DNA from: an uncultured virus (IMG/VR IMGVR_UViG_3300027901_000780)
Lineage: Duplodnaviria > Heunggongvirae > Uroviricota > Caudoviricetes
Strand: one strand, 5' to 3'
Length of the DNA stretch: 64,000 nucleotides
IMG/VR virus record: IMGVR_UViG_3300027901_000780
Each line of letters begins with the position of its first letter. The stretch's first letter is position 1. The translations under genes and the position numbers were made by a program. Shown in pieces: positions 20,351-37,129 of this stretch. Below the pieces are notes generated by a model. The model was given only the letters and a program-made list of their open reading frames with translations, did not search any database and was not told where the DNA came from.

Positions 20351-20740
20351 TTACTTTATTTTCTTCATATTACAATTCTTTTCATCATATATTTTAATAA
20401 AATTATTTAACTCTTTTAGCCTCATATCCCTTTGTTCTGACAATGTATTTATATCTTTATTCCTTGACCTAATAATAGAATTTATATACTCTATTCTCTT
20501 CTTATATGATTCTATTAATTCATCTTCTTCAGAAAACTTTTCTCCTGCTTCTAATTTTTCAATTTTCTTTTTTGCTAAACTAATTATTATCTTTTCAGCA
20601 TTAATTTTTTCTTTATCTAAATTTCTATTATATTGATATTTTTCTTCCATTGATTTAACTATCTTACTTATATTATCTATTTCCTTTTCTAATTCTTTCT
20701 TCATTTCTTCACATGATAATCCTCTAAAAAGTATTTCCAT
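20351..20740 (-). CDS. Paired-Cys coiled-coil hairpin protein (CxxKKL family)
   Basis: LSCEEMK...CNMKKIK. Confidence 0.85.
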   Translation of the reverse strand: MEILFRGLSCEEMKKELEKEIDNISKIVKSMEEKYQYNRNLDKEKINAEKIIISLAKKKIEKLEAGEKFSEEDELIESYKKRIEYINSIIRSRNKDINTLSEQRDMRLKELNNFIKIYDEKNCNMKKIK

Positions 20741-20747
20741 TTTTATT

Positions 20748-21104
20748 TCACTCCTTTTTCTTTATGAATAATGCCCAAGTTCTTCCATATAATCCTTTTT
20801 GTTCATGTCCCATACCTAATATTTCAAATCCCTTTTTATTCATTTCTGATTTCCACTCTTCCTCTGTAATACTTAATCCTTTTAACATACAATAATCTTT
20901 CATTTCTTCTTCAGTTATTTTACTAATAGGTTTCTTTAATTCTAATGAAAGTTCTGCCAATGGTATGCAACTACCACTCCAACCTTCATATTTTACTATA
21001 AAATTATCATTTAACTTTTCTTCTCCACACTCATCTGACACTTCATCTACTATTTCCCATAATCTATTTAATACTTTCTCTGGTATTATATCCTTTATAC
21101 CCAT
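20748..21104 (-). CDS. Hypothetical protein
   Basis: ORF with GAGGT RBS. Confidence 0.8.
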   Translation of the reverse strand: MGIKDIIPEKVLNRLWEIVDEVSDECGEEKLNDNFIVKYEGWSGSCIPLAELSLELKKPISKITEEEMKDYCMLKGLSITEEEWKSEMNKKGFEILGMGHEQKGLYGRTWALFIKKKE

Positions 21105-21116
21105 AAAACTTATACC

Positions 21117-21983
21117 TCAATTAATATTTAATAATTTATTTATTTCTTCATATTTTCCACTTTCTTCTAACATATATATTTTTATTGCTAAATTTGAATC
21201 CTCCCTAAATATAAATGGAAAAAAGTTTATTCCAAATTTAAGATTAGGAAATTCTTCTCTTTTTTCCAATTCTTTTTCTTGTTCTTCTGTTAAATAAAAT
21301 AAATATCCCTTTCCCATTAATAATGATTTAATATTATCTAAATAGTCTTTAGTAATTGGTGTATCTTTTAATTCTTGTTGTAAAAATATTATTAATTTAT
21401 TTGTACTTATAAATTCATTTTTATCTAAATAATCATCTAACTTATCTTTTATCTTTCTAAATTCTGCTTCCATACCCAAACTCGTACCTAAATCATGAAT
21501 AATAATTAATTTATTTATATCACAACTCTTATTTTTTGCTATATCTTCAATAAATTTTATAATATTATCTCTATTTTCCATTTCTTTCCAAATATTATCC
21601 AACTTTATAGTTAATTCATTAATCATACCTTGAATAACATTTTTATCTATACCCTTCCATTTCTCTTGCATTTCTATTTTTCTACCAATACAATCAGGAC
21701 ATATTTTTAATACTCCTTCTTCTTCCAATCTTTTCCATTCTTCTATTTCTTCTTCTGTATATGGTTCTTCTATCATTATAGATAAACCACCCCTCTCTCC
21801 TGCTATTTTATTATATATATCTAATAAATTTTTCTTTTCTACTATAAATTTATCAATTTCATTTTGTAATTTATTACAATCCATTTTCTCTATTTTTTCT
21901 TTTATTTTTGTTATATCTACTTCTGTCTTTAACATTATTCTTTTTGCATCTAATATACCATTATCATCCATTTTTATCATCAA
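21117..21983 (-). CDS. Paired-Cys hairpin fused to C-terminal domain
   Basis: MDCNKLQ...SCDINKL internal motif, CPDC insert. Confidence 0.8.
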   Translation of the reverse strand: MMIKMDDNGILDAKRIMLKTEVDITKIKEKIEKMDCNKLQNEIDKFIVEKKNLLDIYNKIAGERGGLSIMIEEPYTEEEIEEWKRLEEEGVLKICPDCIGRKIEMQEKWKGIDKNVIQGMINELTIKLDNIWKEMENRDNIIKFIEDIAKNKSCDINKLIIIHDLGTSLGMEAEFRKIKDKLDDYLDKNEFISTNKLIIFLQQELKDTPITKDYLDNIKSLLMGKGYLFYLTEEQEKELEKREEFPNLKFGINFFPFIFREDSNLAIKIYMLEESGKYEEINKLLNIN

Positions 21984-23098
21984 CCCATAAATACAAAGTT
22001 TAAAAATAATATCTTTAAATTATGAAATGAATGTACCTCTATTGCACATATTACATGATAAGTCATTGATAATGCTGATAAAATTAATCCCATACAGAAT
22101 ATATATAATACTGAATCCATTACTAAATCAGCACCTAATATAACCACTAATTGAAATGTATGTAATAATGCAAATACTACATTACTTATAATATGACTGA
22201 ATCCCCTTATTACTGTTGTACTTACATTATATCTTAATTTATCAACCATTGTCCTATGAATTAATGGAAATAATATTCTATCTGGAAATACTCCATGAAA
22301 GAATATACTCTCTCCAAATGGTACTAATGTAAAATTAAGGAATATCTCCGTACTAAATGGTATAGACATACTCATACTAACAACAGTACCTTCTGGTTCT
22401 AAATATTCATACCCAAGCATTGCCATACTTGCTAAACTCATCATACTACTTATTCCTATAAATATAACAATACCAAATGCTATACCCTCCAATATTCTCT
22501 TTATACTTACCCCACCTATATCTTTTAAATCTATGTCATCTACTCCTTCTTCATTAAAATATTCCTTTCTTTCTTTTGACAAACCTCCTCTTCTTACCTC
22601 TAACACATCTTCTACTCTGAAATTTTTCTCTAACATATCTCTCTCTTTTACTTGTTGAAGAGTATTCGGTGACAAAAACACTATCATACCAAATATTATG
22701 AGGAATGTATCTAATAGAAATATTGTTAAATTAGTTGGTATTTCATATCTTACCACACTCAATAGAAATACTATACTAAATAGAAATATTATTCCCAATA
22801 CTAAGAACATAATATTTACTTGTCGCCTTTCTAAACCTTCCGCCTCTAATAATGTTCTATAATCTTCTTCTAAACCATCCAACACTTCCTCATTTGTTCT
22901 TGGTATTTCTTCCTCATCAATATACATATATCTTCTCTTTGTTTTCTTCGTTCTTTTCTTTTCTTCTTTAAAAGTCTTTTTCTTTGCTTCCTCTATTTTT
23001 TGTATATTTCCATTTCTTACATTACTCATTAATTGTGCCAAATTTTGGGTATTTTTCTTCTTTATATCCTCTATTAATTCTTCTTTCTTTTTTACCAT
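21980..23098 (-). CDS. CPBP (Abi/type II CAAX) intramembrane protease
   Basis: VPFGESIFFHG (degenerate EExxFR), SNVVFALLH, HSFHN motifs with TM helices. Confidence 0.8.
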   Translation of the reverse strand: MVKKKEELIEDIKKKNTQNLAQLMSNVRNGNIQKIEEAKKKTFKEEKKRTKKTKRRYMYIDEEEIPRTNEEVLDGLEEDYRTLLEAEGLERRQVNIMFLVLGIIFLFSIVFLLSVVRYEIPTNLTIFLLDTFLIIFGMIVFLSPNTLQQVKERDMLEKNFRVEDVLEVRRGGLSKERKEYFNEEGVDDIDLKDIGGVSIKRILEGIAFGIVIFIGISSMMSLASMAMLGYEYLEPEGTVVSMSMSIPFSTEIFLNFTLVPFGESIFFHGVFPDRILFPLIHRTMVDKLRYNVSTTVIRGFSHIISNVVFALLHTFQLVVILGADLVMDSVLYIFCMGLILSALSMTYHVICAIEVHSFHNLKILFLNFVFMG

Positions 23099-23140
23099 TA
23101 CTATTCTTCCATAATTAATTTAATATTATTTAATATTTAT

Positions 23141-23452
23141 TTAAATTATCCCAAATTCTTTTAATCTTTCTTCTCTTAATTTTTTAATTTCTAATTTTCT
23201 TGATGCTAATTTTAATGCACCACAACTATCTAATGCCTTTAATATTTTATCTTTTGGAATATTATGCATCTCTACATCTATCATTTCATATCCATAAGAA
23301 TCTAAAGCACCTGCTAAACAATGTGGATCAACTAAATCTACTAAATTATCATATTCATGGTTTGTTATTTTCTTAATTTTTCTTATAAAATTCCTTTCAC
23401 TTGATTCTGTTTTTAAATATATTGGTCTTGCATCTTCCTTTTCCTTACTCAT
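23141..23452 (-). CDS. C-x8-GY-x21-C protein
   Basis: HCLAGALDSYGYEMIDVEM..ALDSC. Confidence 0.85.
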   Translation of the reverse strand: MSKEKEDARPIYLKTESSERNFIRKIKKITNHEYDNLVDLVDPHCLAGALDSYGYEMIDVEMHNIPKDKILKALDSCGALKLASRKLEIKKLREERLKEFGII

Positions 23453-23476
23453 TTATATTACCTTCTTTTTATAATT

Positions 23477-23872
23477 TCATAATTTCTTTAAATCACACTT
23501 ATTACTAAATGCTACTACAATATTTATAATATTCTTTTCTTCCATTATTTTAGAATTTCTTAATTTATTTATCTTTTCTATTATTTCTCTTTTCTTATAT
23601 TTTAATTTTTTTATTTCTTCTATTGGTATGCTCATACTAACTCCTATACCAATAGTTGTTAATCCTGCTGAATATGCACTTCTCATTGATTCTTCTAAAT
23701 CTTCAATTTTCTTATCTATTTCATATTTTTCTTTTGTCTTTTCTTCTATCATTTCTAATGTTTCTTTATAATCACCCACTAAATTCGCCAATGTATTTTT
23801 TATTACATTACAACCCATTTTTTCCATTTGTTCTACACTAAACAATAATTCTGCCATTCTTTCTAATCCCAT
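23477..23872 (-). CDS. CxxKKL family hairpin protein
   Basis: MGCNVIK...CDLKKL. Confidence 0.85.
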   Translation of the reverse strand: MGLERMAELLFSVEQMEKMGCNVIKNTLANLVGDYKETLEMIEEKTKEKYEIDKKIEDLEESMRSAYSAGLTTIGIGVSMSIPIEEIKKLKYKKREIIEKINKLRNSKIMEEKNIINIVVAFSNKCDLKKL

Positions 23873-23910
23873 TTTTATATCACATCCTACATTAAATATT
23901 AATATTAATA

Positions 23911-24231
23911 TTAATATAATTTCTTTAATTCACATCTCTTCTTTTTTGCCATAATTAAAATTCTTGCTATATTTTCCTCAAATATTCCTTTATTTTCTTT
24001 ATTTATAATCAATTTTTCTTTCTTTCTTTTTATCTGTTCCCTCATAGAACTTTTAATTTCTGTTGGTGGCATTAAACCTACTGTTTCTTCCATTGCCTTA
24101 ATTATTTTTATTAATCTTTCAATATCTTCTAATGTTTCTTCATAACTATTTACTTGTAATTCCAACATATCTTTTAAGTCATCACAATCAAGAATTTCTA
24201 TTTCTTTTATAACTACCTTTTCTTCAATCAT
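23911..24231 (-). CDS. CxxKKL family hairpin protein
   Basis: LDCDDLK...CELKKLY. Confidence 0.85.
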   Translation of the reverse strand: MIEEKVVIKEIEILDCDDLKDMLELQVNSYEETLEDIERLIKIIKAMEETVGLMPPTEIKSSMREQIKRKKEKLIINKENKGIFEENIARILIMAKKKRCELKKLY

Positions 24232-24533
24232 AATTTCCTCAACTCACAACTCTCTAATGGTATTTCTTTCTTTAATTTTGAATCTATAAATGATTCTAAT
24301 ATCATCTTTTTCTTTTCTATATCAATATACACATGTATTGGATGTATATTAAATTCAAATATTTCACTATTTTTTAATTCATTTATCTTTTCATGTAAAT
24401 AATCATAATCTATACATAAATTTTCTCCTTCTAACTTTAACATTTTTTCTTCTACTAACGACATTATTCTTTCTTCACCTGTAACTGGTACTCCCTTTAA
24501 TTTTTCTTGTACCTTTTTCCAGAACATTGTCAT
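24228..24533 (-). CDS. CxxKKL family protein
   Basis: LCID...SCELRKL. Confidence 0.85.
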   Translation of the reverse strand: MTMFWKKVQEKLKGVPVTGEERIMSLVEEKMLKLEGENLCIDYDYLHEKINELKNSEIFEFNIHPIHVYIDIEKKKMILESFIDSKLKKEIPLESCELRKL

Positions 24534-24554
24534 TTATATCATCCATATCTATAT

Positions 24555-24956
24555 CTATAATTTCTTAAATTTACAATCTGAATATTTATCTAATATATTA
24601 TTTAATTCTATTTTAATTTTATCTGCTTCCCTTATATTTTCTGCCCTTTTTTCATCTGCCTCTAATAAATCTTTTTCTTTCATTCTCATTAATTTTACTG
24701 CATTATTCCATTCTCTTTGTAATATTATTTTTGATTCTGGTTTTGCCCTTTTCATCCTTTTCTCTAAATTAATAACATACATTCTTGCTCTTGCTAATAC
24801 CATATGTGCATTATCAAAATCATAATCTAAATATTTTCTTGATTGAAATAATTTTTCTAATTTTTCTAAATTATCATTAAATTCATTTCTTATATCAGTA
24901 CAAGTTAATTGCCCAATTAATTCTTTTACTTCTTCCTTCTTTGCTTCAAATGGCAT
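24555..24956 (-). CDS. CxxKKL family hairpin protein with MPF N-terminus
   Basis: MPFEAK..LTCTDIR...CKFKKL. Confidence 0.85.
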   Translation of the reverse strand: MPFEAKKEEVKELIGQLTCTDIRNEFNDNLEKLEKLFQSRKYLDYDFDNAHMVLARARMYVINLEKRMKRAKPESKIILQREWNNAVKLMRMKEKDLLEADEKRAENIREADKIKIELNNILDKYSDCKFKKL

Positions 24957-26110
24957 TATTTACCTCCCCTTCCAAATAATTTTCCTATACCCTTTCTTAT
25001 CACATTTGCCAATCTTACCCCATCTATTATTAACCATGCTATAATAAACCCTATAATTGACATTAAGAAAAAGTTACCTACCATACCTAATATATCAACA
25101 CCTGCATTTCCTGTTACAGTCATATCTAATGATAAACCAAATGTATAATTTATTCCACCTATATTAAGGTAATTAAATGGATTATATCCTAATATTGCTA
25201 TCATTATATTTACTACTAATGCACCTCCATACAACATTGCACCAAAGAATATTGTTTTAGTTCCTCCTTCTGGATCACGACCTATTGTTGCATAGAATAT
25301 ACCTATTGCTATGATCATTCCTGGTAATACATATATTATGAAATTAAAAAAGTTCTTGAATGAACTAAATGCACCTAATATTGCACCTATTACACCACTA
25401 AAATCTCCACTCATTATACCACCCCATGCTTGATTTTGTTGCTCTGGATCACTTGTTACATAACTTAATTTTATATGAAATGGTAAAATATATACACTTG
25501 CCACCGTTTGTGACCATACCTCTACTTTTATTTTAACTATATTTCCATCTTCTATATTATATAATGTTTCTATAAATATTATTTGATCACTATCATCATC
25601 TGTATATTCTATCCAATAAAATTGTTCTTGATCATTTTCTATATATGTTATTACCATACTCCATCCATCTGGATTATGCCTATATCCTTCTGCCAATGCA
25701 GTTATTTCTATTGTAAATGATTCTAATTCTCCTAATGTTACAATTTCTCCTCCTATCCATACACCATAATATTCTGGTTGGTTACAATATATTTGTTGCT
25801 GACTTTCATGATATGTTGTTCCTAAATCTCCCGCTGATAACATTAATATTCCTGTTGATGTGAATAAATTACTTGCAAACATGAATAAAAATAGACTTAT
25901 TATAAACCACTTAATCTTTCCCGTCTTTAATAATATATAGAACGATAATATAAACCCTAAAATTGTTATTAAATATCGTAAATCTAATCCTATTGATGTT
26001 ACAAAGAAATATCCACCAACAAATGCACCTATAAGCATTAATGGTAATAGAAATGGTATTCTCTCTAAATTAACTAACCTCTTTCTTTTTGCTGGTCTTA
26101 ATTTTTCCAT
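24956..26110 (-). CDS. Polytopic membrane protein with extracellular beta domain; paralog of 27702-28427
   Basis: About 3 N-terminal TMs, soluble domain, about 3-4 C-terminal TMs. Confidence 0.85.
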   Translation of the reverse strand: MEKLRPAKRKRLVNLERIPFLLPLMLIGAFVGGYFFVTSIGLDLRYLITILGFILSFYILLKTGKIKWFIISLFLFMFASNLFTSTGILMLSAGDLGTTYHESQQQIYCNQPEYYGVWIGGEIVTLGELESFTIEITALAEGYRHNPDGWSMVITYIENDQEQFYWIEYTDDDSDQIIFIETLYNIEDGNIVKIKVEVWSQTVASVYILPFHIKLSYVTSDPEQQNQAWGGIMSGDFSGVIGAILGAFSSFKNFFNFIIYVLPGMIIAIGIFYATIGRDPEGGTKTIFFGAMLYGGALVVNIMIAILGYNPFNYLNIGGINYTFGLSLDMTVTGNAGVDILGMVGNFFLMSIIGFIIAWLIIDGVRLANVIRKGIGKLFGRGGK

Positions 26111-26144
26111 TTACTATTACCTTATACTAAATATTTATATTAAT

Positions 26145-26486
26145 TTATTTCATCCTTCTTAAATTACATAACTCTAATTCGCCCAATACAAATTGTGGAT
26201 CAATTTTATATATCTTTATTAAATCTTCTATACTTTTAATTTCTGTATCAAATTCTTTGTTTAAACTCTTTACTAAACATTCTATATTTCTCACATTTAT
26301 CAAATGTTTTAATTCATCTTGTTCCATTCCTGCAAACATTTCTTTTAATTCTGGTATTTCTTCAAATTTATTTTTTAATTCATTATATATTTGCATACCA
26401 CCTATTTCATCTGATTCTAAATCTTCTCCAAACAATTGTTTTGATATAATTCCATCTTTCTCTTTTTCATTTGACATATAAATCAC
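26145..26486 (-). CDS. Half ferritin-like (rubrerythrin-type) protein with paired-Cys C-terminal module
   Basis: ESDEIGGMQIY...QDELKH (E..Y / ExxH), then ECLVKSL..LCNLRRMK. Confidence 0.65.
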   Translation of the reverse strand: MIYMSNEKEKDGIISKQLFGEDLESDEIGGMQIYNELKNKFEEIPELKEMFAGMEQDELKHLINVRNIECLVKSLNKEFDTEIKSIEDLIKIYKIDPQFVLGELELCNLRRMK

Positions 26487-26493
26487 TCCTTAT

Positions 26494-27102
26494 TTATACT
26501 AATTCTATATGTTCTGCTCTTTCAAAATATTTCTCCTTTTCTTCTTCTGTAAGATGTTTATCCAAAGAAAATACAATCTTTTTTAATCCACAACCACGTA
26601 ACCTTAACTGATTCATCATAGACATTATACTTAATACTCTTGCCTTTGCCTTTCTTTCTTCCTCTAAAGCACTACCGATTCCTTTATATTTCTTTAATAA
26701 TTCAATATTCTTAATATGTTCATTAAAGATTCTTATTTGATTACCTAAATCATCACCCCACATAATACACTTAAGTTTCATATCAAATGGTTCATCTGGA
26801 TATTTTTCCTCATGTTCCTCTTTTTCTCTTGCTATTAGTTGTTCATCTTTATCACTTAATTTTCCTAATGGTAATCCCTTATATTTTATAAGTCTTACCG
26901 CACCACCAAACTTAATTAAATCTACATCTGGTATCAATGATTGTGCCTCTTCTACACCCATCTCACGTAAAATTAAACCTTTTATACTACTTAATCTTGG
27001 TTGCTTTGCAAACTTATTAAATTCTTCCTTAACATATTTAACTAATTCTTTATCTGACATATCCACTAATTCCATAATTTTCTTCATTTCCATATTTTTC
27101 AC
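26494..27102 (-). CDS. Protein with internal CxxKKI hairpin module
   Basis: KCIMW...RGCGLKKI. Confidence 0.8.
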   Translation of the reverse strand: MKNMEMKKIMELVDMSDKELVKYVKEEFNKFAKQPRLSSIKGLILREMGVEEAQSLIPDVDLIKFGGAVRLIKYKGLPLGKLSDKDEQLIAREKEEHEEKYPDEPFDMKLKCIMWGDDLGNQIRIFNEHIKNIELLKKYKGIGSALEEERKAKARVLSIMSMMNQLRLRGCGLKKIVFSLDKHLTEEEKEKYFERAEHIELV

Positions 27103-27110
27103 CTTTTTAT

Positions 27111-27623
27111 TTATTTTAATTCTATATACTTACATCCATCTTTATTCATTTTTAATAATATACCAACCATCTTACTTGATACTTTAATCTTTTCTTTCAT
27201 TATTAACTTAATTTTATCATTTAATTCTTCTAATTCTTCAGATGTTAATGGTTCTATCGGATTTAAGTATAATGAAGCACCATACTCTGCTTCTTCTATT
27301 AATTTAAATTTAAATTCATTCTCCAACTTTTCTATTTCTTCATTTAATATCTTATATTTTAAGAATAGATGTTCAAATAATAAATATAATCCAATACCAT
27401 CTTTTTCTTCTCTTTTACCAATATTTAATTCTGGTATTAATTCCATTATTGGTTTTAATCCACCATCAGAACCGTTATTATCCTTTAAAAAGGTTATTTC
27501 TCTCTTTAATTGCATATTTTTTAGTATTAATGAACCTATTATTTCTGTCTTTGTTCTTAACTGTATTTCCATCATTCTTACATCTATTTTACTATAATTA
27601 ATCATTCCTTCTGTCATAATCAT
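27111..27623 (-). CDS. Coiled-coil protein, paralog of 37142-37780
   Basis: KNMQL..KPIMELIP..SLYLNP; ends GCKYIELK. Confidence 0.8.
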   Translation of the reverse strand: MIMTEGMINYSKIDVRMMEIQLRTKTEIIGSLILKNMQLKREITFLKDNNGSDGGLKPIMELIPELNIGKREEKDGIGLYLLFEHLFLKYKILNEEIEKLENEFKFKLIEEAEYGASLYLNPIEPLTSEELEELNDKIKLIMKEKIKVSSKMVGILLKMNKDGCKYIELK

Positions 27624-27701
27624 TTCTCCATTATTTTTATTATATTATTGCATTACTATTCTTTATAATAAAAAATAATATAATTTATGTTATATTATAT
27701 T

Positions 27702-28427: not shown

Positions 28428-28441
28428 TTATCTTCTCTCCT

Positions 28442-29566: not shown

Positions 29567-29605
29567 ATTATATTCTTCTAATTTCTCCCATTATTTCTTC
29601 TATTA

Positions 29606-29916
29606 TTATAATTTCTTTAATTCACAACCCATCTTTTTTAACTTTAACATTTTATCTGCTATATTCACACTTAACTCTTTTATACCATCCATCATAAATC
29701 TAAGAGTTTCTCCTTCTTTATCTAATTCTTCAGTTAATGGAATTTTTTACCCCACCAAAATATTTCATTTTCTCCTATTATTTTCTTTTTATGTTCTTCT
29801 ACTTTTCCCAAATATATATCTTTCTTTTCATAATATATTTTATTTTCTCTTTCTAACTCTTTTAATTCCTTATTCAAACTATTTAATAATATATCACAAT
29901 CTTCCATACATTTCAC
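29606..29916 (-). pseudogene. Frameshifted CxxKKL family member
   Basis: 5' part MEDCDILL...WWGKK; -1 frame continues IPLTEELDK...MGCELKKL-stop at 29606; junction at an A6 run (T6 at 29743-29748 on + strand). Confidence 0.65.
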
Positions 29917-29917
29917 C

Positions 29918-32020
29918 TCATGTTATATACATTTGTGTATTTTCTTCTACTATCTTTTCTTGTAATTCAGTTATATCAATAATTCTTTCTCCCCTTATTC
30001 CTATATCTATATTTGGAACAACTACCTCCTCTTCAATTTTATTTTCAATATTTTCCTTTGATAATCTTTCTATTAAAAATTCTGCTGGATTTACACCATC
30101 CATCAAGAATTGCTCTATTAATCTTTCTTCAGTTAATATATTTCTCAATATACCATACTTTTTTAATGGTATATATCCTAATAAATAACCTAATTGTTTA
30201 TCTAAATAAATTGCATCAACAAATCTTCCTTTTGTTTTCTCTCTTTTTCCATGTTCATATTTTATGTATTCAAAATTACCATTTACCAAATCTTTTAACT
30301 CATTTATTGTTATACTACCTTTTATCCCTTGATATAAATTTAAACCACTTAACATTATTGGTATATTCTTACAATAACATGATTCTGCAAACATTAATCC
30401 ATTATCTGTTTGTGTATTTACCTTCTGTATTTGTAACATTTTCTTTACCTTTGGATTATTAAACCATAATATAAAATCTTGAAAATCTCCACTACTTTCT
30501 AACTTTTCACAATATGCACATGGATGTGACGTTTCACCTGTTACTGGATCAATTGTCTTATCTAACTTTGTAAATACATATACTGTTCCTTTTACATCAT
30601 TTTTTTCAAGAAATATTGATAATGCACCTAATATACTATCTTCTATATCTACTTCATTTCTAATTTTTTCATTAAAAGGTATTTTTGTTAATAATAATAA
30701 TTGTTCCAACTCATTTAATATAATAATCATTTCATTTGTTAAATGAAAAAAATCAATATAATGTCCTGAAAATTGACTTCTTAATAATAATTTATGTAAT
30801 ACTTCAAACCTATCAAAAAATGCACTTACACTTATCATTAATTCTGGTTTTCTTAATGATAACTTTTTAATTAATTCATTATTTGATATTATATTTAATT
30901 CTCCTCTCAATCTAAATAAATATATTAAAAATTTCATTATATCATCTGTTTCAAATTCAATATTACCACTAAATACTGTTTTAACCATTTTATAATTCCA
31001 TATAAAATCATAATCTTTTATATGACTTAACAACATATCTGACCTTATTTCTTCTATATTTAATTTATCTATATATGATTCTATTGTTAATAAATAACTT
31101 TCTATTCTTTGTAATAATGGGATAATACTTCCATTTGATAGAAAAATAATATTACTAATAATTCTTTTCATTATATAATTACATATACCTCTAATATATA
31201 TTGGTTCTTTTAAATTATTTATATTTCCACCATTATAACTCTTATCAAAATATGAATAAACATTAACTATTAATGAAATATTTTTTACCTTTATTAATAA
31301 TTCTTCTAATTTCTTACTAAATGGTATTGACACAAAAGAATATTCTAATCTACTGTAATCTCTTGCATACATAGGAAAATCATCTTCTAACCTATATAAA
31401 CAATCAACATAAATTGAAAACAATTCCTCTATCTCTATTATACAATTTTTTAATTCTTCTTTTAATGATATTGTTTCTACTTTATTTTCTTGTTCCATAC
31501 TTAATTTTGTTTCTATTTCTGCCCTCAACTCTTCTTCTATTTCATTACCTATACTATTTAAGTCAATTTCAACAATACTACCTTTTGTATTTGTTGTATT
31601 ATTTATATCTTCAATACCAATATCTTCTTCTCCAATATCATCAACAAAAATAATTGGTGCATTTCTACTTGTTTTTATTTCTTTACTTTTTTCTTGTTGT
31701 TTTATTTTTTTAGATATTTCATTTATTTCATTATTTATACTTTCTATTTTTTCTTCTACCTCAGTTAAATTATTCATTATTATTTCAGTCTTATATTCTA
31801 ATTTTTCAATTTTCTCCTTTTCTGCACCTTCCTCAATTAATTCTTGATATTCTATATATTTTTCTTCTAATTGTATCCTAATTTTCTCATATTCTCCTTC
31901 AAGTTCTTTTTTCATATTCATTAATACAATAATTTTTTCATTTAATCTTTCTTCTTTAGAACTTTTTTTCTCTATATTAGTAACTTTATTATTTATTTCA
32001 ACTTTTTCTTCAAATGGCAT
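29918..32020 (-). CDS. Coiled-coil protein with possible C-terminal thioredoxin/glutaredoxin-like CxxC domain; MPF N-terminus
   Basis: MPFEEK; VYVFTK..HPCAYCEKLE. Confidence 0.75.
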   Translation of the reverse strand: MPFEEKVEINNKVTNIEKKSSKEERLNEKIIVLMNMKKELEGEYEKIRIQLEEKYIEYQELIEEGAEKEKIEKLEYKTEIIMNNLTEVEEKIESINNEINEISKKIKQQEKSKEIKTSRNAPIIFVDDIGEEDIGIEDINNTTNTKGSIVEIDLNSIGNEIEEELRAEIETKLSMEQENKVETISLKEELKNCIIEIEELFSIYVDCLYRLEDDFPMYARDYSRLEYSFVSIPFSKKLEELLIKVKNISLIVNVYSYFDKSYNGGNINNLKEPIYIRGICNYIMKRIISNIIFLSNGSIIPLLQRIESYLLTIESYIDKLNIEEIRSDMLLSHIKDYDFIWNYKMVKTVFSGNIEFETDDIMKFLIYLFRLRGELNIISNNELIKKLSLRKPELMISVSAFFDRFEVLHKLLLRSQFSGHYIDFFHLTNEMIIILNELEQLLLLTKIPFNEKIRNEVDIEDSILGALSIFLEKNDVKGTVYVFTKLDKTIDPVTGETSHPCAYCEKLESSGDFQDFILWFNNPKVKKMLQIQKVNTQTDNGLMFAESCYCKNIPIMLSGLNLYQGIKGSITINELKDLVNGNFEYIKYEHGKREKTKGRFVDAIYLDKQLGYLLGYIPLKKYGILRNILTEERLIEQFLMDGVNPAEFLIERLSKENIENKIEEEVVVPNIDIGIRGERIIDITELQEKIVEENTQMYIT

Positions 32021-32076
32021 ACTATTGTATCACCTTACTACTTTTTACTATTTTCATTTCTTACTATTTTTAAATA

Positions 32077-33309
32077 TTAACCACTTATACCCAACTTGTC
32101 AGCAAGTTCTGGTGGTATTCCTAATCCACCATCTTTACTTGTAAATTGTGGTCTTAATATCTCATCAAAAGACTTTCTTACAGCAGAACCCACCTCTGCA
32201 CCTAAATCTACATATTCTAATATTTGTAATGCAAAATTAACTACTGTAATTTTCATTTTATTCATTCTTATTTCTTTTGCAGTTATATCTGAAACTTCAT
32301 CAGCCATTTCTCCTATGTGATGTTTAAATTCTCTTTCCCTCTTAATAAAATCATGCCTCATTTTTTCATATTCTCTTATCCATTCTCTTCTTCTCATTTG
32401 ATGTTGTAAATCTAATTGATTAACTAAATTTATATTTTCAAATAATTCTGCTGGTTCTATCACCGCTTCATTTAATGATAAAGAATATATATTATTTTTA
32501 TCATTAATAAACTGGAATGGTCTATCTATCATATCAATTAAATTTACTTCCTTTACTAATTTATCAACATTTGGATTTATACTAATTCTCGCCCTTACCA
32601 TTTCATTTAATGTTTTTTCATTTATACTATCAACTGGTCTTGTATATAATTTCAATTCTCTTTTCTTTGTTGGTAATTGTCCATAAAATACAATTGTCTT
32701 TTTTTCTTCATTTGTTGCCTTTTCAAATAATTGTTCATCCATTAATTTAGGTTCTATATTTAATTTTATTAAATCTTCTTCCTTATAATATTCAATATCA
32801 CATTTTTCACATCTATAAACTTCAAATGTTTCTTGTTTTGTAACCTCCTTAGTTCCTAATATTTCACCATTCTCTAAATTTTTACTTATATTTTCTAATT
32901 GTTCTTTTGTTAATCTACTTAAATCTTTATTATTATATAATGTCCTCTTTATGTCTTTTAATATAATTGTCTTAAATACAATTGATTTACATTTTTTACA
33001 TGTTCTCCCCTTTTCAAATTTTCCATATAGCATATGAAACCCAAACATCTTAAATATAAAATATTGTCCCTCACTTCCATGTGCAAATATTAATTTACCT
33101 TTTCTCATAAACATTCTTTTTATATCTAAATAATGTAATAATATCCTTCCCATATATTGTCCTTCCCCTATTTTCAATCCTAATACCACTCTTTCTTCTA
33201 AATTCCATAATGTTATAATATATCCTAATGCAAATGCAAATATATTGAATACAATTATTGCACCCAATACAAATCCTATTAATAATATCACATAAAAATT
33301 TATATCCAT
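32077..33309 (-). CDS. Membrane-anchored protein with split Zn ribbon and coiled coil
   Basis: N-terminal TM; CKKC...CEKC. Confidence 0.8.
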   Translation of the reverse strand: MDINFYVILLIGFVLGAIIVFNIFAFALGYIITLWNLEERVVLGLKIGEGQYMGRILLHYLDIKRMFMRKGKLIFAHGSEGQYFIFKMFGFHMLYGKFEKGRTCKKCKSIVFKTIILKDIKRTLYNNKDLSRLTKEQLENISKNLENGEILGTKEVTKQETFEVYRCEKCDIEYYKEEDLIKLNIEPKLMDEQLFEKATNEEKKTIVFYGQLPTKKRELKLYTRPVDSINEKTLNEMVRARISINPNVDKLVKEVNLIDMIDRPFQFINDKNNIYSLSLNEAVIEPAELFENINLVNQLDLQHQMRRREWIREYEKMRHDFIKREREFKHHIGEMADEVSDITAKEIRMNKMKITVVNFALQILEYVDLGAEVGSAVRKSFDEILRPQFTSKDGGLGIPPELADKLGISG

Positions 33310-33840
33310 TTATATCATCTCCTTTATCTCTTCTTTTATTTCTTCAATTGGTATTACCATATAAAATTCATGATATTCAGGCATAGTTTTTCCCCTAAAG
33401 AATATTCTTTTTCCTCCTGCCTTCCTATATAATACTCCCCTATTTACTAATCTTTTTAATATATCTCCAACTTCTCTCCAATGTATTTTTTTACCAGTCT
33501 TTTCTTCTATTAAATTATATATTTCTTTTGTTCTAATTTTTTTATTCTCTCTTAAATAATTAATTAAAATAACTTTTACAATATCAAAATGGTCTGGTAT
33601 TTTACCTAATATTTCTACTTCACTAACTAATTTCTTTATATCACAACTCTTTTTAATTGCAATCATTTCAATATCACTAATTTTTAATTTTATATCATTT
33701 ATCTTTTTATCTATATCAGATGTACTAACACCTTCACTAATTAATAAGTTCTTTATTGCTTCAACCTTACTTAAATCTATATTATTTGTAAATAATAAAT
33801 TTGCTAAATTATTACAAGATAATTCTTCTAATTCTACCAT
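33310..33840 (-). CDS. Paired-Cys hairpin fused to winged helix-turn-helix
   Basis: LSCNNLA..SCDIKKL then RTKEIYNLI..WREVGDILKRLVNRGVL. Confidence 0.75.
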   Translation of the reverse strand: MVELEELSCNNLANLLFTNNIDLSKVEAIKNLLISEGVSTSDIDKKINDIKLKISDIEMIAIKKSCDIKKLVSEVEILGKIPDHFDIVKVILINYLRENKKIRTKEIYNLIEEKTGKKIHWREVGDILKRLVNRGVLYRKAGGKRIFFRGKTMPEYHEFYMVIPIEEIKEEIKEMI

Positions 33841-33871
33841 TTTTTATATCATTTTTAACTTATTTTTTATA

Positions 33872-34423
33872 TTATCTTAAATTTTTTAATTCACAACCTT
33901 TCATATATTCATATAATTTTCCTTTTGTTAAATGTTTTCCCTTTATACCCTTATAACTTCCCCTAATAATTAAATTTTTTATTAAATTATATGAATCAAT
34001 TTTATTTATATTTAATCCTAATGCAACTGATTCAACAATATAATTTATTTTATTTTCCTTTTTAATTATTTTATTCAATATTTCTTCTTTTTCTCCACTT
34101 TTCAATGTTATTATAGTTTTCCCTTTCCATAATTCTTTCAAAAATTTCTTATTAAAATTTTTTATTTCTTCATAAAATTTTTTTAATTTCTTTTCTCTTT
34201 CACTATATTCTCTTCCTATTTTTCTTCTTAATTTTATTAAATTATCTAATATATCTTCTGCTTCTCTTATTTCTACTAATTTTTCTGGATATTTCTTCCT
34301 CAATTCTTTTAATTTAATTCTTGTTATATTTACAAATTCCACAAAATTATGTTCAATTAAATCTTCAAATTTAATTCTTTCTTCTTTCATTTTTTTCCTT
34401 ATTTCTAATATTTCTTCACTCAT
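33872..34423 (-). CDS. CxxKKL family protein
   Basis: Ends GCELKNLR. Confidence 0.8.
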   Translation of the reverse strand: MSEEILEIRKKMKEERIKFEDLIEHNFVEFVNITRIKLKELRKKYPEKLVEIREAEDILDNLIKLRRKIGREYSEREKKLKKFYEEIKNFNKKFLKELWKGKTIITLKSGEKEEILNKIIKKENKINYIVESVALGLNINKIDSYNLIKNLIIRGSYKGIKGKHLTKGKLYEYMKGCELKNLR

Positions 34424-34453
34424 CTATTATAATTCTCCATATTACCATGAATT

Positions 34454-34669
34454 TTATTTAATCTTTTTCAATATACAATCCTTTTCTTTTGCAATTTCCT
34501 CAATTATTTTAATTCTACTATTAATATATTTTTTCAATTCTCCTCTACTAAATTCACTTAATTCTAATTCTTCTATCATTTGAAAAGCATCAACACTCAA
34601 CATTTCATATTCTTTTTGTAAATCTTCACAAGACATTCTTTTAATTACTCTCAACCATAATTCTGACAT
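34454..34669 (-). CDS. Minimal CxxKKL hairpin protein
   Basis: MSCEDLQ...DCILKKIK. Confidence 0.85.
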   Translation of the reverse strand: MSELWLRVIKRMSCEDLQKEYEMLSVDAFQMIEELELSEFSRGELKKYINSRIKIIEEIAKEKDCILKKIK

Positions 34670-34672
34670 TTA

Positions 34673-34987
34673 TTAAATCATCCTTATATCACATTGTCTT
34701 ATTATTTTATTTAAATTCCAAGATTCTTCTTCACTAAACTTAATTAATTGATTAATATTATTTATATTATAATCTCTTCTCAATCTTTCAAATATACAAT
34801 CTAAAATTGCTATGTTTTTTCCTACTTTAAATCCACTTTCTGACATCTCTTTTAGATAATTATGTAATATTGGTATTTCTTCTACTGCCTCTGCTATCCT
34901 ATTAAAAAACATTGATTCATTTACCATATCTTGTGCTAAAGTACTAATACCTAATATACTCCTTACATATTCCCCATCCTTTGACAT
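34673..34987 (-). CDS. Degenerate paralog of the ferritin-like protein at 26145
   Basis: EEIPILHNYLKEM vs EEIPELKEMFAGM; DCIFERL..QCDIRMI. Confidence 0.75.
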   Translation of the reverse strand: MSKDGEYVRSILGISTLAQDMVNESMFFNRIAEAVEEIPILHNYLKEMSESGFKVGKNIAILDCIFERLRRDYNINNINQLIKFSEEESWNLNKIIRQCDIRMI

Positions 34988-34989
34988 AA

Positions 34990-35445
34990 TTAAAATACCC
35001 CTAACACTTTTCTTCTCTTTTCTGGTATTATTTTACTCACATATTCTGGTTTAAACCAATACCTCCCATATTCTGCTGTCCATACCTTATATCCCTTTTC
35101 TTTATCAATATCTTCTACCTTTCCAGTTGTTGATACCAAACCACTTATCATTACATTTACTTGTTCTCCTATTTCAATTGGTTTTTCCTTTTTACCATTA
35201 GACATTATCATTTCTGTTATATTTAATTCTATTGGTATAATTATTTTTTTAATTATACAACTTTTACTTTTTAATGTATTTAATATATTATTTAATTCTA
35301 TTTGTCTTTCTGTAATTTGTCCTTCACTTACATTTATACCAACATTTTTTAATTGATTTATTAAATATAATTCTTCACCCTTTTTCTTATATATTTTATT
35401 TAATTCTTCACAATCTTTTTCTTTTATTTCTTTTAGACTTAACAT
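34990..35445 (-). CDS. Paired-Cys hairpin fused to SH3/KOW-like barrel
   Basis: KDCEELN..SCIIKKI then IEIGEQVNV..GKVEDI..GYKVW. Confidence 0.7.
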   Translation of the reverse strand: MLSLKEIKEKDCEELNKIYKKKGEELYLINQLKNVGINVSEGQITERQIELNNILNTLKSKSCIIKKIIIPIELNITEMIMSNGKKEKPIEIGEQVNVMISGLVSTTGKVEDIDKEKGYKVWTAEYGRYWFKPEYVSKIIPEKRRKVLGVF

Positions 35446-35457
35446 AATATATTACTC

Positions 35458-35844
35458 CTATATTTTCTTTATTTCACAATCTTTCTCTCTAAATAGTTTT
35501 TCTAATGCCTTTTTTTCTTCTTTCCATTGATTTATTTGTTGTTCTCTTAATGGATGATAAGGTAATATACTCTCCATAGTTATAAGTATATTTAAATTTG
35601 ATATTGCTTTATCCACATTTTCACATGGTTGTTCTTCATATTTTTCTAATGTTCTTAATTTTTCTAATTCCACAAATATTTCATTACTTACTGTTTTTAC
35701 TCTTTCTCCAGTTCTTGTTTTTACTGTTTTTATATCTGAATATTCTAATACATCTTTCTCTCTTAAAAACATTTCATCATTATAAGTAAGTACTCTTGTT
35801 TGCCTTCCAAATTCATCAAACACATATCTAACTATATCACTCAT
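35458..35844 (-). CDS. CxxKKL family protein
   Basis: PCENVD...DCEIKKI. Confidence 0.85.
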   Translation of the reverse strand: MSDIVRYVFDEFGRQTRVLTYNDEMFLREKDVLEYSDIKTVKTRTGERVKTVSNEIFVELEKLRTLEKYEEQPCENVDKAISNLNILITMESILPYHPLREQQINQWKEEKKALEKLFREKDCEIKKI

Positions 35845-35856
35845 ATCTATTATCTC

Positions 35857-36183
35857 CTATAACCTTTTTAATCCACATTCCATAATTTTATCCTTAAATA
35901 ATTCTACTGTTTCTTTTAACTTTTCTTTAGCATCTATAAATAATTTATTTATATAAAATTCTTCTATTATATCTATATTAACATTAATATGTTCAATCTC
36001 TACTCCACTACAATTATCCTTTAATTCTATTATTATTTCTCTAATATTATCAAAATATTGAACCACATTTTCAAAATCAGTATATTTATTTAATAATTTC
36101 CTTAATTCATCTGTTGTATTTAAAAAAGTAATTATATCTTTTCCACATTCACATGATGTATCTTCTTCTCCCATATATATCAT
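35857..36183 (-). CDS. CxxKKL family helical protein
   Basis: SCECGK...ECGLKRL. Confidence 0.85.
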   Translation of the reverse strand: MIYMGEEDTSCECGKDIITFLNTTDELRKLLNKYTDFENVVQYFDNIREIIIELKDNCSGVEIEHINVNIDIIEEFYINKLFIDAKEKLKETVELFKDKIMECGLKRL

Positions 36184-36212
36184 CTCCTTATTTTATTTAT
36201 CTTATAATTATT

Positions 36213-36566
36213 CTAAAAAATTGTTGGAAATTTTGATAATACTTTCTTTATATCTTTTTCTATACTTTCTGGTGTTAAATCAGTTTCACCACCCATCTCT
36301 ATAAATTCTTTCATACTCTCTTTACTCTTTTCTAAAAAATTTAAATGTACCCCTAATGCTTGACATCCTAATAACATTCCATCTAATTTTTCTAATAAAT
36401 TCTCTTCACCAATAGACCATATATCTCCTCCAATAATCATTCTTCCTCTTATACCTATTCCTTGCATTAATCTTATTTCTCCATCACTTATTTCAACATG
36501 TAAATTTATTCCACAAAATTCATTTATCTTTTCTATTTTTTTCTTTATTTTCTCTTCAAATTCCAT
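36213..36566 (-). CDS. Hypothetical protein
   Basis: ORF in operon; two Cys. Confidence 0.8.
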   Translation of the reverse strand: MEFEEKIKKKIEKINEFCGINLHVEISDGEIRLMQGIGIRGRMIIGGDIWSIGEENLLEKLDGMLLGCQALGVHLNFLEKSKESMKEFIEMGGETDLTPESIEKDIKKVLSKFPTIF

Positions 36567-36579
36567 TTATAACACTATC

Positions 36580-36885
36580 CTACATTTTCTTACTTTCACA
36601 ACTTTTTTCTAATTCTCTCAATTCTCTTAAATTACCTAATATTTCTGTTTGAGAACCATCCATAATAAGCATTTGATCTTGTATTACTTTTGGTATTTGT
36701 TGCCAATCCATCTTCTTTATATCATCCATTTTTAAATTAAATGCTGAAAGTAAATTAAGATATTCATTTCTTGCTGTATCATGTTTATCTAAATTCCAAT
36801 ATATTATATTTTTTTTCTTTTCTATTTCTTCATTACATTCTTCTAATTCAAATATAGTAATTTTTTCTTCTCCCATATTTATCAC
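36580..36885 (-). CDS. CxxKKL family hairpin protein
   Basis: EECNEEI...SCESKKM. Confidence 0.85.
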   Translation of the reverse strand: MINMGEEKITIFELEECNEEIEKKKNIIYWNLDKHDTARNEYLNLLSAFNLKMDDIKKMDWQQIPKVIQDQMLIMDGSQTEILGNLRELRELEKSCESKKM

Positions 36886-36886
36886 C

Positions 36887-37129
36887 CTATAATTTTTTCA
36901 ATTCACATTTATTATCTTTTGCCAATTCTTCAATTAACTCAAGTTTTTTCTCTTGTATCCTTATATCACCAACAAATTCTTTTGTTACCTTTTCATAATA
37001 TTGAGGCATTGTATATAACAATTCATCCTCTAAATCCTGTTGTAATATTCTTATATTTTCTTTAATTCTATTATATTCTTGTTGTAATATTCTTGAACAT
37101 ATTTCTATCTTTCCTTCTTCAATAATCAT
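36887..37129 (-). CDS. CxxKKL family hairpin protein
   Basis: EICSRIL...KCELKKL. Confidence 0.85.
   Translation of the reverse strand: MIIEEGKIEICSRILQQEYNRIKENIRILQQDLEDELLYTMPQYYEKVTKEFVGDIRIQEKKLELIEELAKDNKCELKKL

Follow-up and report, generated by a model that had tools for sequence, protein, structure and literature searches.

Organization of the locus

The window, a stretch of 64,000 nucleotides from an uncultured virus, carries on its minus strand, between positions 20351 and 37129, a block of small genes, many of which encode proteins with near-identical C-terminal peptides (Table 1). Genes are named here by their lower coordinate. The block also encodes a membrane protein, and a thioredoxin-fold protein is found elsewhere in the window. 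The sequence-only reading listed 15 genes with the motif at the end and four with an internal copy, and all 19 copies are present as described; as a list of family members it needs correction at two genes, since 27111 is doubtful and 29606 is frameshifted.

Table 1. Genes of the hairpin family and two further proteins discussed in the text
Feature	Position	Strand	Length (aa)	Cysteines and motif	Remarks
Member	20351..20740	-	129	Cys10 (LSCEEM), Cys123 (CNMKKIK end)	
Member	21117..21983	-	288	Cys36-Cys154 (CDINKL, internal)	Hairpin with CPDC at tip, then 134-aa C-terminal part
Member	23477..23872	-	131	Cys21, Cys126 (CDLKKL end)	Long hairpin
Member	23911..24231	-	106	Cys16 (LDCDDL), Cys100 (CELKKLY end)	
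Member	24228..24533	-	101	Cys40, Cys96 (CELRKL end)	
Member	24555..24956	-	133	Cys19 (LTCTDI), Cys128 (CKFKKL end)	
Member	26145..26486	-	113	Cys70-Cys107 (CNLRRMK end)	N-terminal domain common to 34673
Member	26494..27102	-	202	Cys112-Cys171 (CGLKKI, internal)	31 residues past motif
Doubtful member	27111..27623	-	170	Single Cys (CKYIELK end)	
Split member	29606..29916	-		MEDCDIL; GCELKKL end at 29606	ORF 29734-29916 plus out-of-frame stretch
Member	33310..33840	-	176	Cys9 (LSCNNL)-Cys66 (CDIKKL, internal)	Hairpin, then weakly winged-helix-like domain
Member	33872..34423	-	183	Sole Cys177 (CELKNLR end)	No partner Cys
Minimal member	34454..34669	-	71	Cys14 (MSCEDL), Cys65 (CILKKIK end)	Modelled protein
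Member	34673..34987	-	104	Cys64-Cys99 (CDIRMI end)	
Member	34990..35445	-	151	Cys12 (KDCEEL)-Cys63 (CIIKKI, internal)	Hairpin, then 88-aa domain
Member	35458..35844	-	128	Cys74-Cys123 (CEIKKI end)	N-terminal domain before hairpin
Member	35857..36183	-	108	Cys58-Cys103 hairpin (CGLKRL end)	Four Cys
Member	36580..36885	-	101	Cys17, Cys96 (CESKKM end)	
Member	36887..37129	-	80	Cys11, Cys75 (CELKKL end)	
Membrane protein	21980..23098	-	372		Residues about 190-372 CPBP/Rce1-like (E263, FALLH313, H356-SFH-N360)
Thioredoxin-fold protein	55540..56013	+		CTPC active site	

The C-terminal motif

The strict form of the motif, C.[LIMF][KR][KRN][LIM], placed at most two residues from the end, terminates 11 of the 29 minus-strand ORFs of at least 40 amino acids inside 20351-37129, and a looser pattern terminates 14. 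Shuffling the same proteins 5000 times gives a mean of 0.0056 strict and 0.019 loose matches with a maximum of 1 and does not reproduce the observed frequency, which confirms that the motif is real. None of the 59 other ORFs of at least 50 amino acids in the window ends in it, and no right-arm protein carries it, in line with the earlier statement that replication proteins of the right arm lack it. Two outside control sets, both chosen because they contain a DNA word encoding the motif, show it in 0 of 1225 ORFs (31 IMG/VR loci) and in 3 of 1503 (119 metagenome loci), each of the three alone on its own locus.

A 26-residue profile built from 18 C-terminal ends gives 17.7–22.6 bits for 17 of them and 5.3 bits for 24228, the weakest fit. 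The scores of the members are circular, and the informative part is the absence of additional matches: among 765 six-frame segments, the best outside the family reaches 7.5 bits and no further members appear. In 14 intact genes and in the split copy, the invariant cysteine is the 6th or 7th residue counted from the C-terminus, the 14 proteins stopping 5 or 6 residues past it.

Conservation is at the protein level, as proposed earlier: Lys and Arg are exchanged, as are Leu, Ile and Met, the position following the cysteine is unconstrained, and the choice of synonymous codons varies to about the same extent as elsewhere in the genome. The idea that the conserved letters act at the DNA or RNA level, as a promoter, a terminator or a signal for re-initiation, with the peptide as a by-product, is close to refuted. 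It draws on the fairly uniform DNA (TGT GAx TTA AAG AAA TTA) and on AAG-AAA at seven of nine Lys-Lys sites compared with about 40% elsewhere, but codon bias alone accounts for the uniformity (TGT 99%, TTA 83%, GAA 84%), substitutions keep the amino-acid class and not the bases, and Leu at position +2 is encoded by TTG at three of nine sites versus 10% genome-wide. Moreover, the next start overlaps by 4 bases at one extreme and lies 38 bases away at the other, four copies lie mid-gene, searches yielded neither a terminator nor an Rfam match, and the partner cysteine described below would be left unexplained.

Members of the family and their relatedness

Two genes of the block stand apart. The end of 27111 matches only the loose pattern, and its close paralog at 37142-37780 (E 1e-19) lacks the motif end, which makes its membership doubtful. 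At 29606 the motif is encoded in an open stretch of 46 codons, whose frame differs from that of the 60-residue ORF carrying the partner cysteine; an A6 run marks the overlap of these frames, and the run contig X2 is identical to the window at 29606..29916. This copy is a frameshifted member.

With the motif removed, 13 of 136 member pairs still match at E<0.01, compared with 0–5 in 20 shuffled sets, and certain pairs align along their entire length. The proteins, described earlier as unrelated, thus have a weak kinship beyond the motif, with the appearance of tandem paralogs that have diverged and, in some cases, gained further domains. No relatives were found in public databases, and fold searches return only generic hairpins with E above 0.6. 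The best reading, with evidence from one genome, is a lineage-specific family of about 18 small, fast-diverging helical-hairpin proteins.

Paired cysteines and hairpin architecture

Exactly two cysteines are present in 14 of 17 members versus 5.4 expected (P about 4e-5). The sequence-only reading noted an upstream partner cysteine in most of the proteins, and in 16 of the 17 intact members it lies one hairpin ahead of the motif cysteine, wherever the module sits, the exception being 33872. The spacing between the two cysteines ranges from 35 to 118 residues. Of the 42 Gly and Pro residues that lie between them, 22 lie in the middle fifth of the interval (P 3e-6; 12 of 16 members), indicating that the turn tracks the midpoint across a threefold range of lengths. 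Both cysteines have hydrophobic flanks: against a background of 40%, position -2 from the first cysteine is hydrophobic in 10 of 16 members and position -5 in 12, while positions +2 and +5 from the second are hydrophobic in 15 and 16, respectively. No family member contains a hydrophobic segment.

The one member modelled with AlphaFold2 (34454, residues 2–71, single sequence) is confidently predicted as a hairpin, with a pLDDT of 91.5. Its first cysteine is the exact start of helix 1, helix 2 stops three residues ahead of the second cysteine, and the secondary-structure register places the second cysteine a few residues past the level of the first. The final ten residues, which include the tail, average a pLDDT of 86; the tail continues directly from helix 2 and is confidently placed, unlike a floppy peptide. 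For the ESM Atlas model of 23477 (pLDDT 0.78), the neighbours include long hairpins of the OmpH/Skp and OEP type, aligned over residues 17–129. Together with the spacing and the midpoint turn, the 34454 model agrees with the earlier proposal that a helical hairpin, whose length varies, lies between the paired cysteines.

These features suggest, with a probability of about one half, a tandemly expanded, lineage-specific family of cytoplasmic α-hairpins, whose open end is fastened by a two-cysteine clasp, probably a disulfide. The module would be an antiparallel α-helical hairpin with arms of freely variable length, in which helix 1 begins at the first cysteine, often within [STD]-C-[DEN]-[DEN]-hydrophobic, and helix 2 is followed by [SDK]-C-x-[LI]-[KR]-[KR]-[LI]. 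The hairpin base would bring both cysteines together, most likely in an intramolecular disulfide, and the hydrophobic and basic tail may pack back onto the hydrophobic and acidic N-terminal flank. Such a clasp could act as a heat-stabilizing staple, making the hairpin a stable adaptor or scaffold module, used alone or fused to other domains, in what appears to be a leftward operon of a heat-adapted archaeal-type virus. Against the clasp, the tail is more conserved than a disulfide alone requires, 33872 lacks the partner cysteine, and small proteins outside the region show no preference for even numbers of cysteines (one in 10 proteins, two in 10, three in 4 and four in 5).

Binding of a metal (Zn or Fe) by the cysteine pair, alone or as a four-cysteine site between two hairpins, for folding or pairing, is quite unlikely. 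Two conserved cysteines at one end of each hairpin, the additional CxxC- or CxC-like pairs of 21117 and 35857 and compatibility with a reducing cytoplasm speak for such a site; His or extra Cys ligands are, however, absent in 14 of 17 members, and the data do not separate metal from disulfide.

Alternative roles of the conserved end

Encapsulin cargo-loading peptides are short conserved C-terminal peptides found on diverse proteins. By analogy, the sequence-only reading took the tail, or the whole clasp, for a docking tag through which a virion or compartment scaffold gathers diverse payloads. The same short end does occur on proteins with differing added domains, and the arm with the block also carries the gene of a large surface protein and further genes presumed to be structural. 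We nevertheless give this analogy little chance and find no support for it. Searches of 86 window proteins with Pfam and of 49 left-arm proteins with PHROGs detect no family of encapsulins, capsids or shells, and the members have more in common than the tag. Unlike an encapsulin cargo peptide, the end contains a cysteine, belongs to a folded module and is internal in four genes; in the 34454 model it is contiguous with the helix and not borne on a linker. The two-cysteine end resembles a clasp built into the protein more than a tag for delivery. Two paralogs, 5692 and 39349, contain the motif-like CLLKRL and CLIRNL, which there belong to a different conserved helix.

The membrane protein 21980 looks like a CPBP/Rce1 (CAAX-protease family) intramembrane protease, an assignment with moderate support. 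In the ESM Atlas, 30 of 30 feature matches are to PF02517 (score 0.91), the structural TM-score is 0.71 over residues 192–372, and alignment to a verified PF02517 protein brings PF-E-I-F, F-LLH and H--HN into register. Its motif 1 is E-S...H and not E-E...R. Comparison by hhalign gives P 0.0024 over 103 columns with a probability of only 12%, no match is found in Pfam at E up to 10 or in NCBIfam, and phmmer against 1.84 billion proteins returns only the protein itself.

Substrates of CPBP enzymes include CaaX boxes and C-terminal sorting signals that bear a cysteine; no natural substrate is known for the archaeal MmRce1 (10.1101/2023.06.07.544157; PMC11980579). Since this enzyme family acts on Cys-containing C-terminal signals, C-x-[LI]-[KR]-[KR]-[LI] could also be a processing signal, with the cysteine modified, for example lipidated, and the tail cut by 21980, tethering the hairpins to the host membrane or viral envelope. 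The fixed distance of the invariant cysteine from the end and the probable CPBP enzyme in the same gene block favor such a role, as do five membrane proteins interspersed among the family genes and a giant glycoprotein-like anchor protein adjoining the block. It is still rather unlikely: the CPBP assignment fails every HMM test, the box is not of the C-a-a-X form and also differs from the tripartite motif-TM-Arg signal, the window contains no recognizable lipid transferase, and four copies are internal. The partner cysteine and the midpoint turn would be left unexplained, and a single protease gene in a 17-kb block is weak linkage.

Comparison with known systems

CHCH (twin Cx9C) domains and plant α-hairpinins are antiparallel helix-turn-helix structures with interhelix Cys-Cys links; their two disulfides have a fixed CX9C or CX3C spacing within the helices. 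The family presented here resembles them as an antiparallel, probably Cys-linked helical hairpin, but its one cysteine pair lies at the extreme ends, its arms can have any length and its basic tail is conserved. Searches by sequence and by fold gave no match. The SSV1 D-63-type helix-turn-helix adaptors are small all-helical hairpin proteins of archaeal viruses, with no known partner; they are not known to have a Cys clasp or a multigene expansion, and they show no detectable similarity to the family.

The CaaX/Rce1 and CPBP "myxosortase" systems (MYXO-CTERM, CGP-CTERM; 10.1101/2023.06.07.544157; PMC11980579) share with this family a short C-terminal signature with an invariant cysteine on many otherwise different proteins; a membrane protease, probably CPBP/Rce1-like, is likewise encoded in the genome, in this case within the gene block itself. 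Unlike in the CaaX box, where the cysteine is 4th from the end, it is 6th or 7th here and is followed by charged residues. No transmembrane segment or signal peptide is present here, and the second cysteine and the hairpin lack a counterpart there.

Composition and redox setting

The composition looks thermophile-like (IVYWREL 0.459, charged-minus-polar 0.13–0.16, strong purine loading); the temperature estimate comes from a formula and is inflated by A+T bias. The genome is best read as that of a thermophile-like orphan virus of archaeal type. Hyperthermophilic archaea and their viruses have disulfide-stabilized cytoplasmic proteins, the subject of a survey (PMC3177088) that lists Larson 2007 and Menon 2008 among its references.

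According to this survey, disulfides occur in the cytoplasm of thermophilic archaea other than methanogens and in the viruses of these archaea, and a methanogen host would make them unlikely (PMC3177088). Like the proteins covered there, the hairpin family consists of small intracellular viral proteins with paired cysteines and thermophile-like composition, with a thioredoxin-fold protein encoded alongside. Unlike them, it reuses one fixed two-cysteine clasp with conserved flanks in about 18 paralogs, the remaining proteins of the virus have no even-Cys bias, the PDO-type two-domain oxidoreductase is not seen here, and the disulfide is inferred. The thioredoxin-fold protein 55540 might be the redox partner of the cysteine pairs.

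The motif and the proteins that carry it

The motif C-x-[LI]-[KR]-[KR]-[LI] occurs in about 18 small minus-strand proteins encoded within 20351-37129, which are named here by their start coordinates. It stands mostly at the C-terminus and is internal in four members (21117, 26494, 33310 and 34990). A strict form of the pattern, C.[LIMF][KR][KRN][LIM] with no more than two residues after it, is present in 11 of the 29 minus-strand ORFs of this region and a loose form at the C-terminus in 14, far above the means of 0.0056 and 0.019, respectively, obtained from 5000 shuffles of the same proteins, in which the maximum was 1. In the rest of the window, 59 ORFs all lack the motif at the C-terminus. 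Among control ORFs it is found in 0 of 1225 from IMG/VR loci, which were picked for containing the motif DNA word, and, among the matches listed, in 3 of 1503 from metagenome loci likewise chosen for that word, each of the three being alone on its locus. The search of the window with a profile of the termini that the sequence-only reading had proposed revealed no further copies: the best non-member among 765 six-frame segments scores 7.5 bits with a 26-residue profile of the 18 ends, compared with 17.7–22.6 bits for 17 members, the latter range being circular, since the profile was built from the same ends.

Each peptide listed in that reading is indeed present in the sequence, and its membership list holds except at two places. 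Protein 27111 is a loose fit to the pattern, with no such end in its close paralog 37142, and the copy at 29606 is split between frames. The N-terminal half of the latter (ORF 29734-29916) and its C-terminal half overlap at an A6 run, where one frame reads GKKFH followed by a stop and the other KIPLTEE; the contig of a second run is identical here. In the reconstructed hairpin of this copy, the turn would fall exactly at the frame overlap. Possible explanations of the split at 29606-29916 (minus strand) are an assembly error, decay to a pseudogene and programmed slippage.

The motif is conserved at the protein level, as had been proposed: replacements stay within an amino-acid class (K/R, L/I/M), position +1 is free, and the uniform look of the motif DNA is accounted for by codon bias alone, which is extreme in the window (TGT 99%, TTA 83%, GAA 84%). 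A DNA-level signal at the gene ends, acting in place of a peptide, would agree with the modest excess of AAG-AAA, used at seven of nine Lys-Lys motif sites versus 36–40% of Lys-Lys pairs elsewhere. This explanation is rejected, as TTG makes up three of nine Leu codons at +2 versus 10% genome-wide, the gap to the next start codon varies from a 4-base overlap to 38 bases, and four copies of the motif lie mid-gene; promoter, terminator and Rfam scans gave nothing informative.

Kinship and the search for relatives

The proteins had been considered unrelated, but 13 of 136 pairs of members remain similar at E<0.01 once the motif is cut away, compared with 0–5 in 20 shuffled sets, and 46 do so at E<0.1, compared with 12–27, although part of this excess may reflect helical periodicity, which shuffling also destroys, and not ancestry. 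Two pairs, 23477 with 23911 and 26145 with 34673, align end to end. Given the tandem arrangement and common two-ended architecture, the simplest reading is that the members are diverged paralogs, some of them with added domains. Weak hints of these domains in Pfam scans are a winged-helix-like region in 33310 and a small beta domain in 34990. An origin of the four internal copies by gene fusion was considered and discarded, the DNA past the motif having no clear intergenic remnant.

No member matches Pfam, PHROGs or NCBIfam, in agreement with the earlier view of a family distinct from characterised domains. A profile of 12 members, searched against 5.8 billion proteins, returned only five of the window's own proteins, and protein library searches with the 288-aa member and with the domain of the protease-like protein 21980-23098 gave self-matches only. 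Neither IMG/VR nor the genome collection yielded loci related to a 700-aa neighbour gene or to the family B DNA polymerase (PolB); the latter is about 25% identical to its closest phage matches. Scans with motif DNA words hit 31 IMG/VR loci and at least 120 metagenome stretches, the matches listed being single chance occurrences. Homologue searches have low sensitivity for short proteins of biased composition, which pass E-value limits only when nearly identical, so that more distant relatives could have been missed. Foldseek with the model of 34454 returned generic hairpins (best E 1.9 in the PDB and 0.61 in BFVD), and 23477 is assigned no family in the ESM Atlas. No description of such a family was found in a literature search aimed at disulfides and CPBP proteins and not at the motif. 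The family is well documented as an observation, and disulfide-type stabilisation and viral multigene families are kinds already known; its members mark a virus lineage without detectable relatives in several billion public proteins.

The helical hairpin and its proposed closure

The motif Cys is invariant in 18 of 18 ends, and exactly two Cys are present in 14 of the 17 intact members, where 5.4 would be expected from the Cys frequency of the window (P about 4e-5). The partner Cys precedes the motif Cys by 35–118 residues, whatever the position of the module in the protein, and is not N-terminal in every member. Gly and Pro between the paired Cys concentrate centrally, with 22 of 42 in the central fifth (12 of 16 members, P 3e-6), indicating that the chain turns at its midpoint regardless of length, as predicted for an antiparallel hairpin with both Cys at the open end. 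The AlphaFold2 model of 34454, made from a single sequence and covering residues 2–71 (pLDDT 91.5), consists of a short N-terminal helix, helix 1 starting from the first Cys, a four-residue turn, and helix 2, which ends three residues ahead of the second Cys. This hairpin, together with the midpoint turn at such different spacings, supports the helical hairpin of variable length, bracketed by paired Cys, that was proposed earlier. The ESM Atlas model of 23477 (pLDDT 0.78) resembles long hairpins, e.g., the OmpH/Skp and OEP arms. A two-copy complex prediction for 34454 scores 0.06 against a mark of 0.32 and argues neither for nor against pairing.

The flanks of the two Cys are mirror-like, with acidic residues after the first and basic ones after the second. 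Hydrophobic residues occupy positions -2 and -5 from the first Cys in 10 and 12 of 16 members and positions +2 and +5 from the second in 15 and 16 of 16, respectively. Within the box, +1 is mostly E, D or N, +2 is aliphatic and +3 and +4 are K or R; all terminal members have 5–6 residues after the motif Cys. No member contains a hydrophobic segment, hence they are probably cytoplasmic.

The preferred reading, held at a probability of about 0.5, is that the two Cys form a clasp shutting the open end of the hairpin, most likely as an intramolecular disulfide. The complementary flanks would help to close this end and to form the bond, and the clasp would stabilise very small proteins at high temperature. 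A published survey (PMC3177088) documents cytoplasmic disulfides in thermophilic, non-methanogenic archaea and their viruses. The CTPC thioredoxin of the virus (55540-56013) could service the putative disulfide; both the thioredoxin-fold profile and the CxxC are present in this protein, and its TIGR01068 score of 48 bits is below the equivalog cut-off. Its CTPC active site is unusual, and it carries a 40-residue Lys/Glu-rich N-terminal extension. A metal site would be a chemically different version with the same two-Cys geometry, and appears improbable. CHCH or twin Cx9C hairpins differ from the members in having two CX9C pairs and four Cys, as opposed to two Cys set 35–118 residues apart. If the clasp is real, it would offer a clean natural example of a minimal stabilising device for a hairpin of any length, reused about 18 times in one virus; it would bear on how heat-adapted viruses keep tiny proteins folded and could provide a design motif.

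The motif had also been likened to a cargo-loading tag, and docking of the tail or of the whole clasp to some partner would give it such a role. This now seems unlikely: Pfam and PHROGs scans, which may pass over distant folds, reveal no shell, capsid or compartment family, and in the 34454 model the tail belongs to the folded end (average pLDDT 86 over the last ten residues, tail included) and is not a free peptide. An encapsulin cargo system would be expected to have an HK97-fold shell gene nearby, and none was detected in these scans. The paralogous proteins 5692 and 39349 contain a motif-like CL[LI][KR].L within a different conserved helix.

A protease-like gene among the hairpin genes

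The gene 21980-23098 encodes a 372-aa membrane protein with the segments GESIFFHG, FALLH and HSFHN, and is probably a CPBP/Rce1-like protease. In the ESM Atlas, PF02517 (Rce1-like, CPBP) appears in 30 of 30 feature hits (score 0.91, 167 shared features), and residues 192–372 match a PF02517 cluster structurally with a TM of 0.71. Plain alignment with a verified PF02517 protein, taken from a metagenome locus (E 2e-17), places all three motif blocks in register. When five PF02517 proteins are compared with the viral domain by hhalign, P is 0.0024 across 103 columns, but the probability is only 12%. Motif 1 reads E-S-I-F-F-H, keeping the first Glu of EExxxR but neither the second Glu nor the Arg; FALLH and HSFHN correspond to FxxxH and HxxxN. 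The PF02517 profile gave no row for this protein at E up to 10 and the NCBIfam CPBP model none at E up to 1, phmmer against 1.84 billion proteins found only the protein itself, and tblastn of the protease domain against plasmids gave no match. PF02517 was not found in two viral records, and the AlphaFold2 model (pLDDT 45.6) is unusable.

The gene matters because the substrates of CPBP enzymes include CaaX boxes and, among prokaryotes, sorting signals at the C-terminus that carry an invariant Cys, whereas the natural substrates of the archaeal MmRce1 are described as unknown (Haft preprint, 10.1101/2023.06.07.544157; Guo, Haft and Wall 2025, PMC11980579). By analogy, the Cys box of about 15 hairpin proteins could be modified at its Cys and then trimmed by the Rce1/CPBP-like protease of the operon, so that this diversified set would become attached to the membrane of the host or to the envelope of the virus. 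The presence of a probable CPBP enzyme inside the same gene block is in line with such tethering, which is nevertheless judged unlikely because the box is atypical, being neither C-a-a-X nor tripartite and having no transmembrane part, four copies are internal, and the partner Cys is left unexplained. In a CaaX box the Cys is fourth from the C-terminus and is followed by two aliphatic residues, whereas the members extend 5–6 residues past the Cys and only +2 is aliphatic, +1 being mostly E/D/N. Tripartite signals (MYXO-CTERM, CGP-CTERM) share the invariant-Cys signature with all 18 member ends, but these have a 5–6-residue tail and no hydrophobic segment. No protein prenyltransferase or other Cys lipid transferase was found by Pfam among the 86 window proteins; the remaining 12.7 kb of the contig, or the host, may supply one. 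If tethering did occur, the members would make up a natural set of substrates, the first for any relative of Rce1 from prokaryotes or viruses that acts on a short box, and, with enzyme and substrates side by side in one operon, the question of archaeal Rce1 substrates would become directly testable.

Genomic setting

Covering 64 kb of a 76.7-kb contig, the window has a G+C content of 24%. Minus-strand genes run leftward up to ~39.7 kb and plus-strand genes rightward from ~40.3 kb; the very strong purine bias of the coding strand flips at ~38-40 kb around an A+T-rich non-coding stretch, likely a control region or origin. In this stretch GC skew changes sign, transcription diverges and many imperfect repeats occur. 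The right arm encodes, by Pfam, a family B DNA polymerase, Hjc resolvase, RadA/Rad51-like ATPase, DNA methylase, DprA-like protein and thioredoxin. Taken with the TrmB-type winged-helix regulators, this gene set suggests a virus of archaeal type or a large mobile element. Nearly all of the left arm lacks matches in Pfam and PHROGs, and tRNA and Rfam family searches of the window found none.

Protein composition looks thermophilic (IVYWREL 0.459, charged-minus-polar 0.13–0.16), A+T bias inflating such estimates. The formula of Zeldovich and colleagues (2007) is said to convert this IVYWREL value to about 95 degrees C, a figure subject to the same inflation. Four runs with marine sediment or seawater metagenome labels contain near-identical contigs, and no RNA run is listed among the runs carrying the stretch; those run contigs that fit do not differ from the window, which leaves no variants with which to test selection.

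Further features of the window
Feature	Coordinates	Strand	Basis or description
Met-Pro-Phe starts	11665-12642, 24555-24956, 29918-32020	-	sequence
Met-Pro-Phe starts	40312, 52790, 57838, 58654, 61819	+	sequence
2447-aa protein	12643-19986	-	N-terminal hydrophobic segment, C-terminal membrane anchor, Lys/Glu-rich tail
Papain-like cysteine peptidase	6092-6634	-	Peptidase_C70 (E 4e-6), C39-like (E 2e-5)
Membrane proteins amid hairpin genes	20031-20327, 24956-26110, 27702-28427, 32077-33309	-	no family match
Dispersed paralogs	5692-6105 and 39349-39711	-	E 3e-13 and 2e-15 (two comparisons); straddle both ends of left arm
Dispersed paralogs	27111-27623 and 37142-37780	-	E 1e-19
Dispersed paralogs	41768-42175 and 51869-52264	+	E 6e-8
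Control region or origin candidate	about 38050-40300		~19% G+C, mostly non-coding
Thioredoxin	55540-56013	+	PF00085 E 1.6e-11, CTPC active site

The 2447-aa protein has 87 N-x-S/T sequons where 35 are expected and no family match in Pfam or PHROGs; judged from its sequence, it resembles a surface or envelope protein with heavy glycosylation. The papain-like peptidase, possibly a maturation protease from its family matches, adjoins a 923-aa protein without known family. The membrane protein 32077-33309 carries two CxxC pairs as well. A Met-Pro-Phe start, possibly an N-terminal or start-site signal, opens 8 of the 86 proteins, with both arms represented and PolB and the DNA methylase among the eight, where about 0.08 would be expected from composition; it is encoded as ATG CCA TTT, with a GTG start once.
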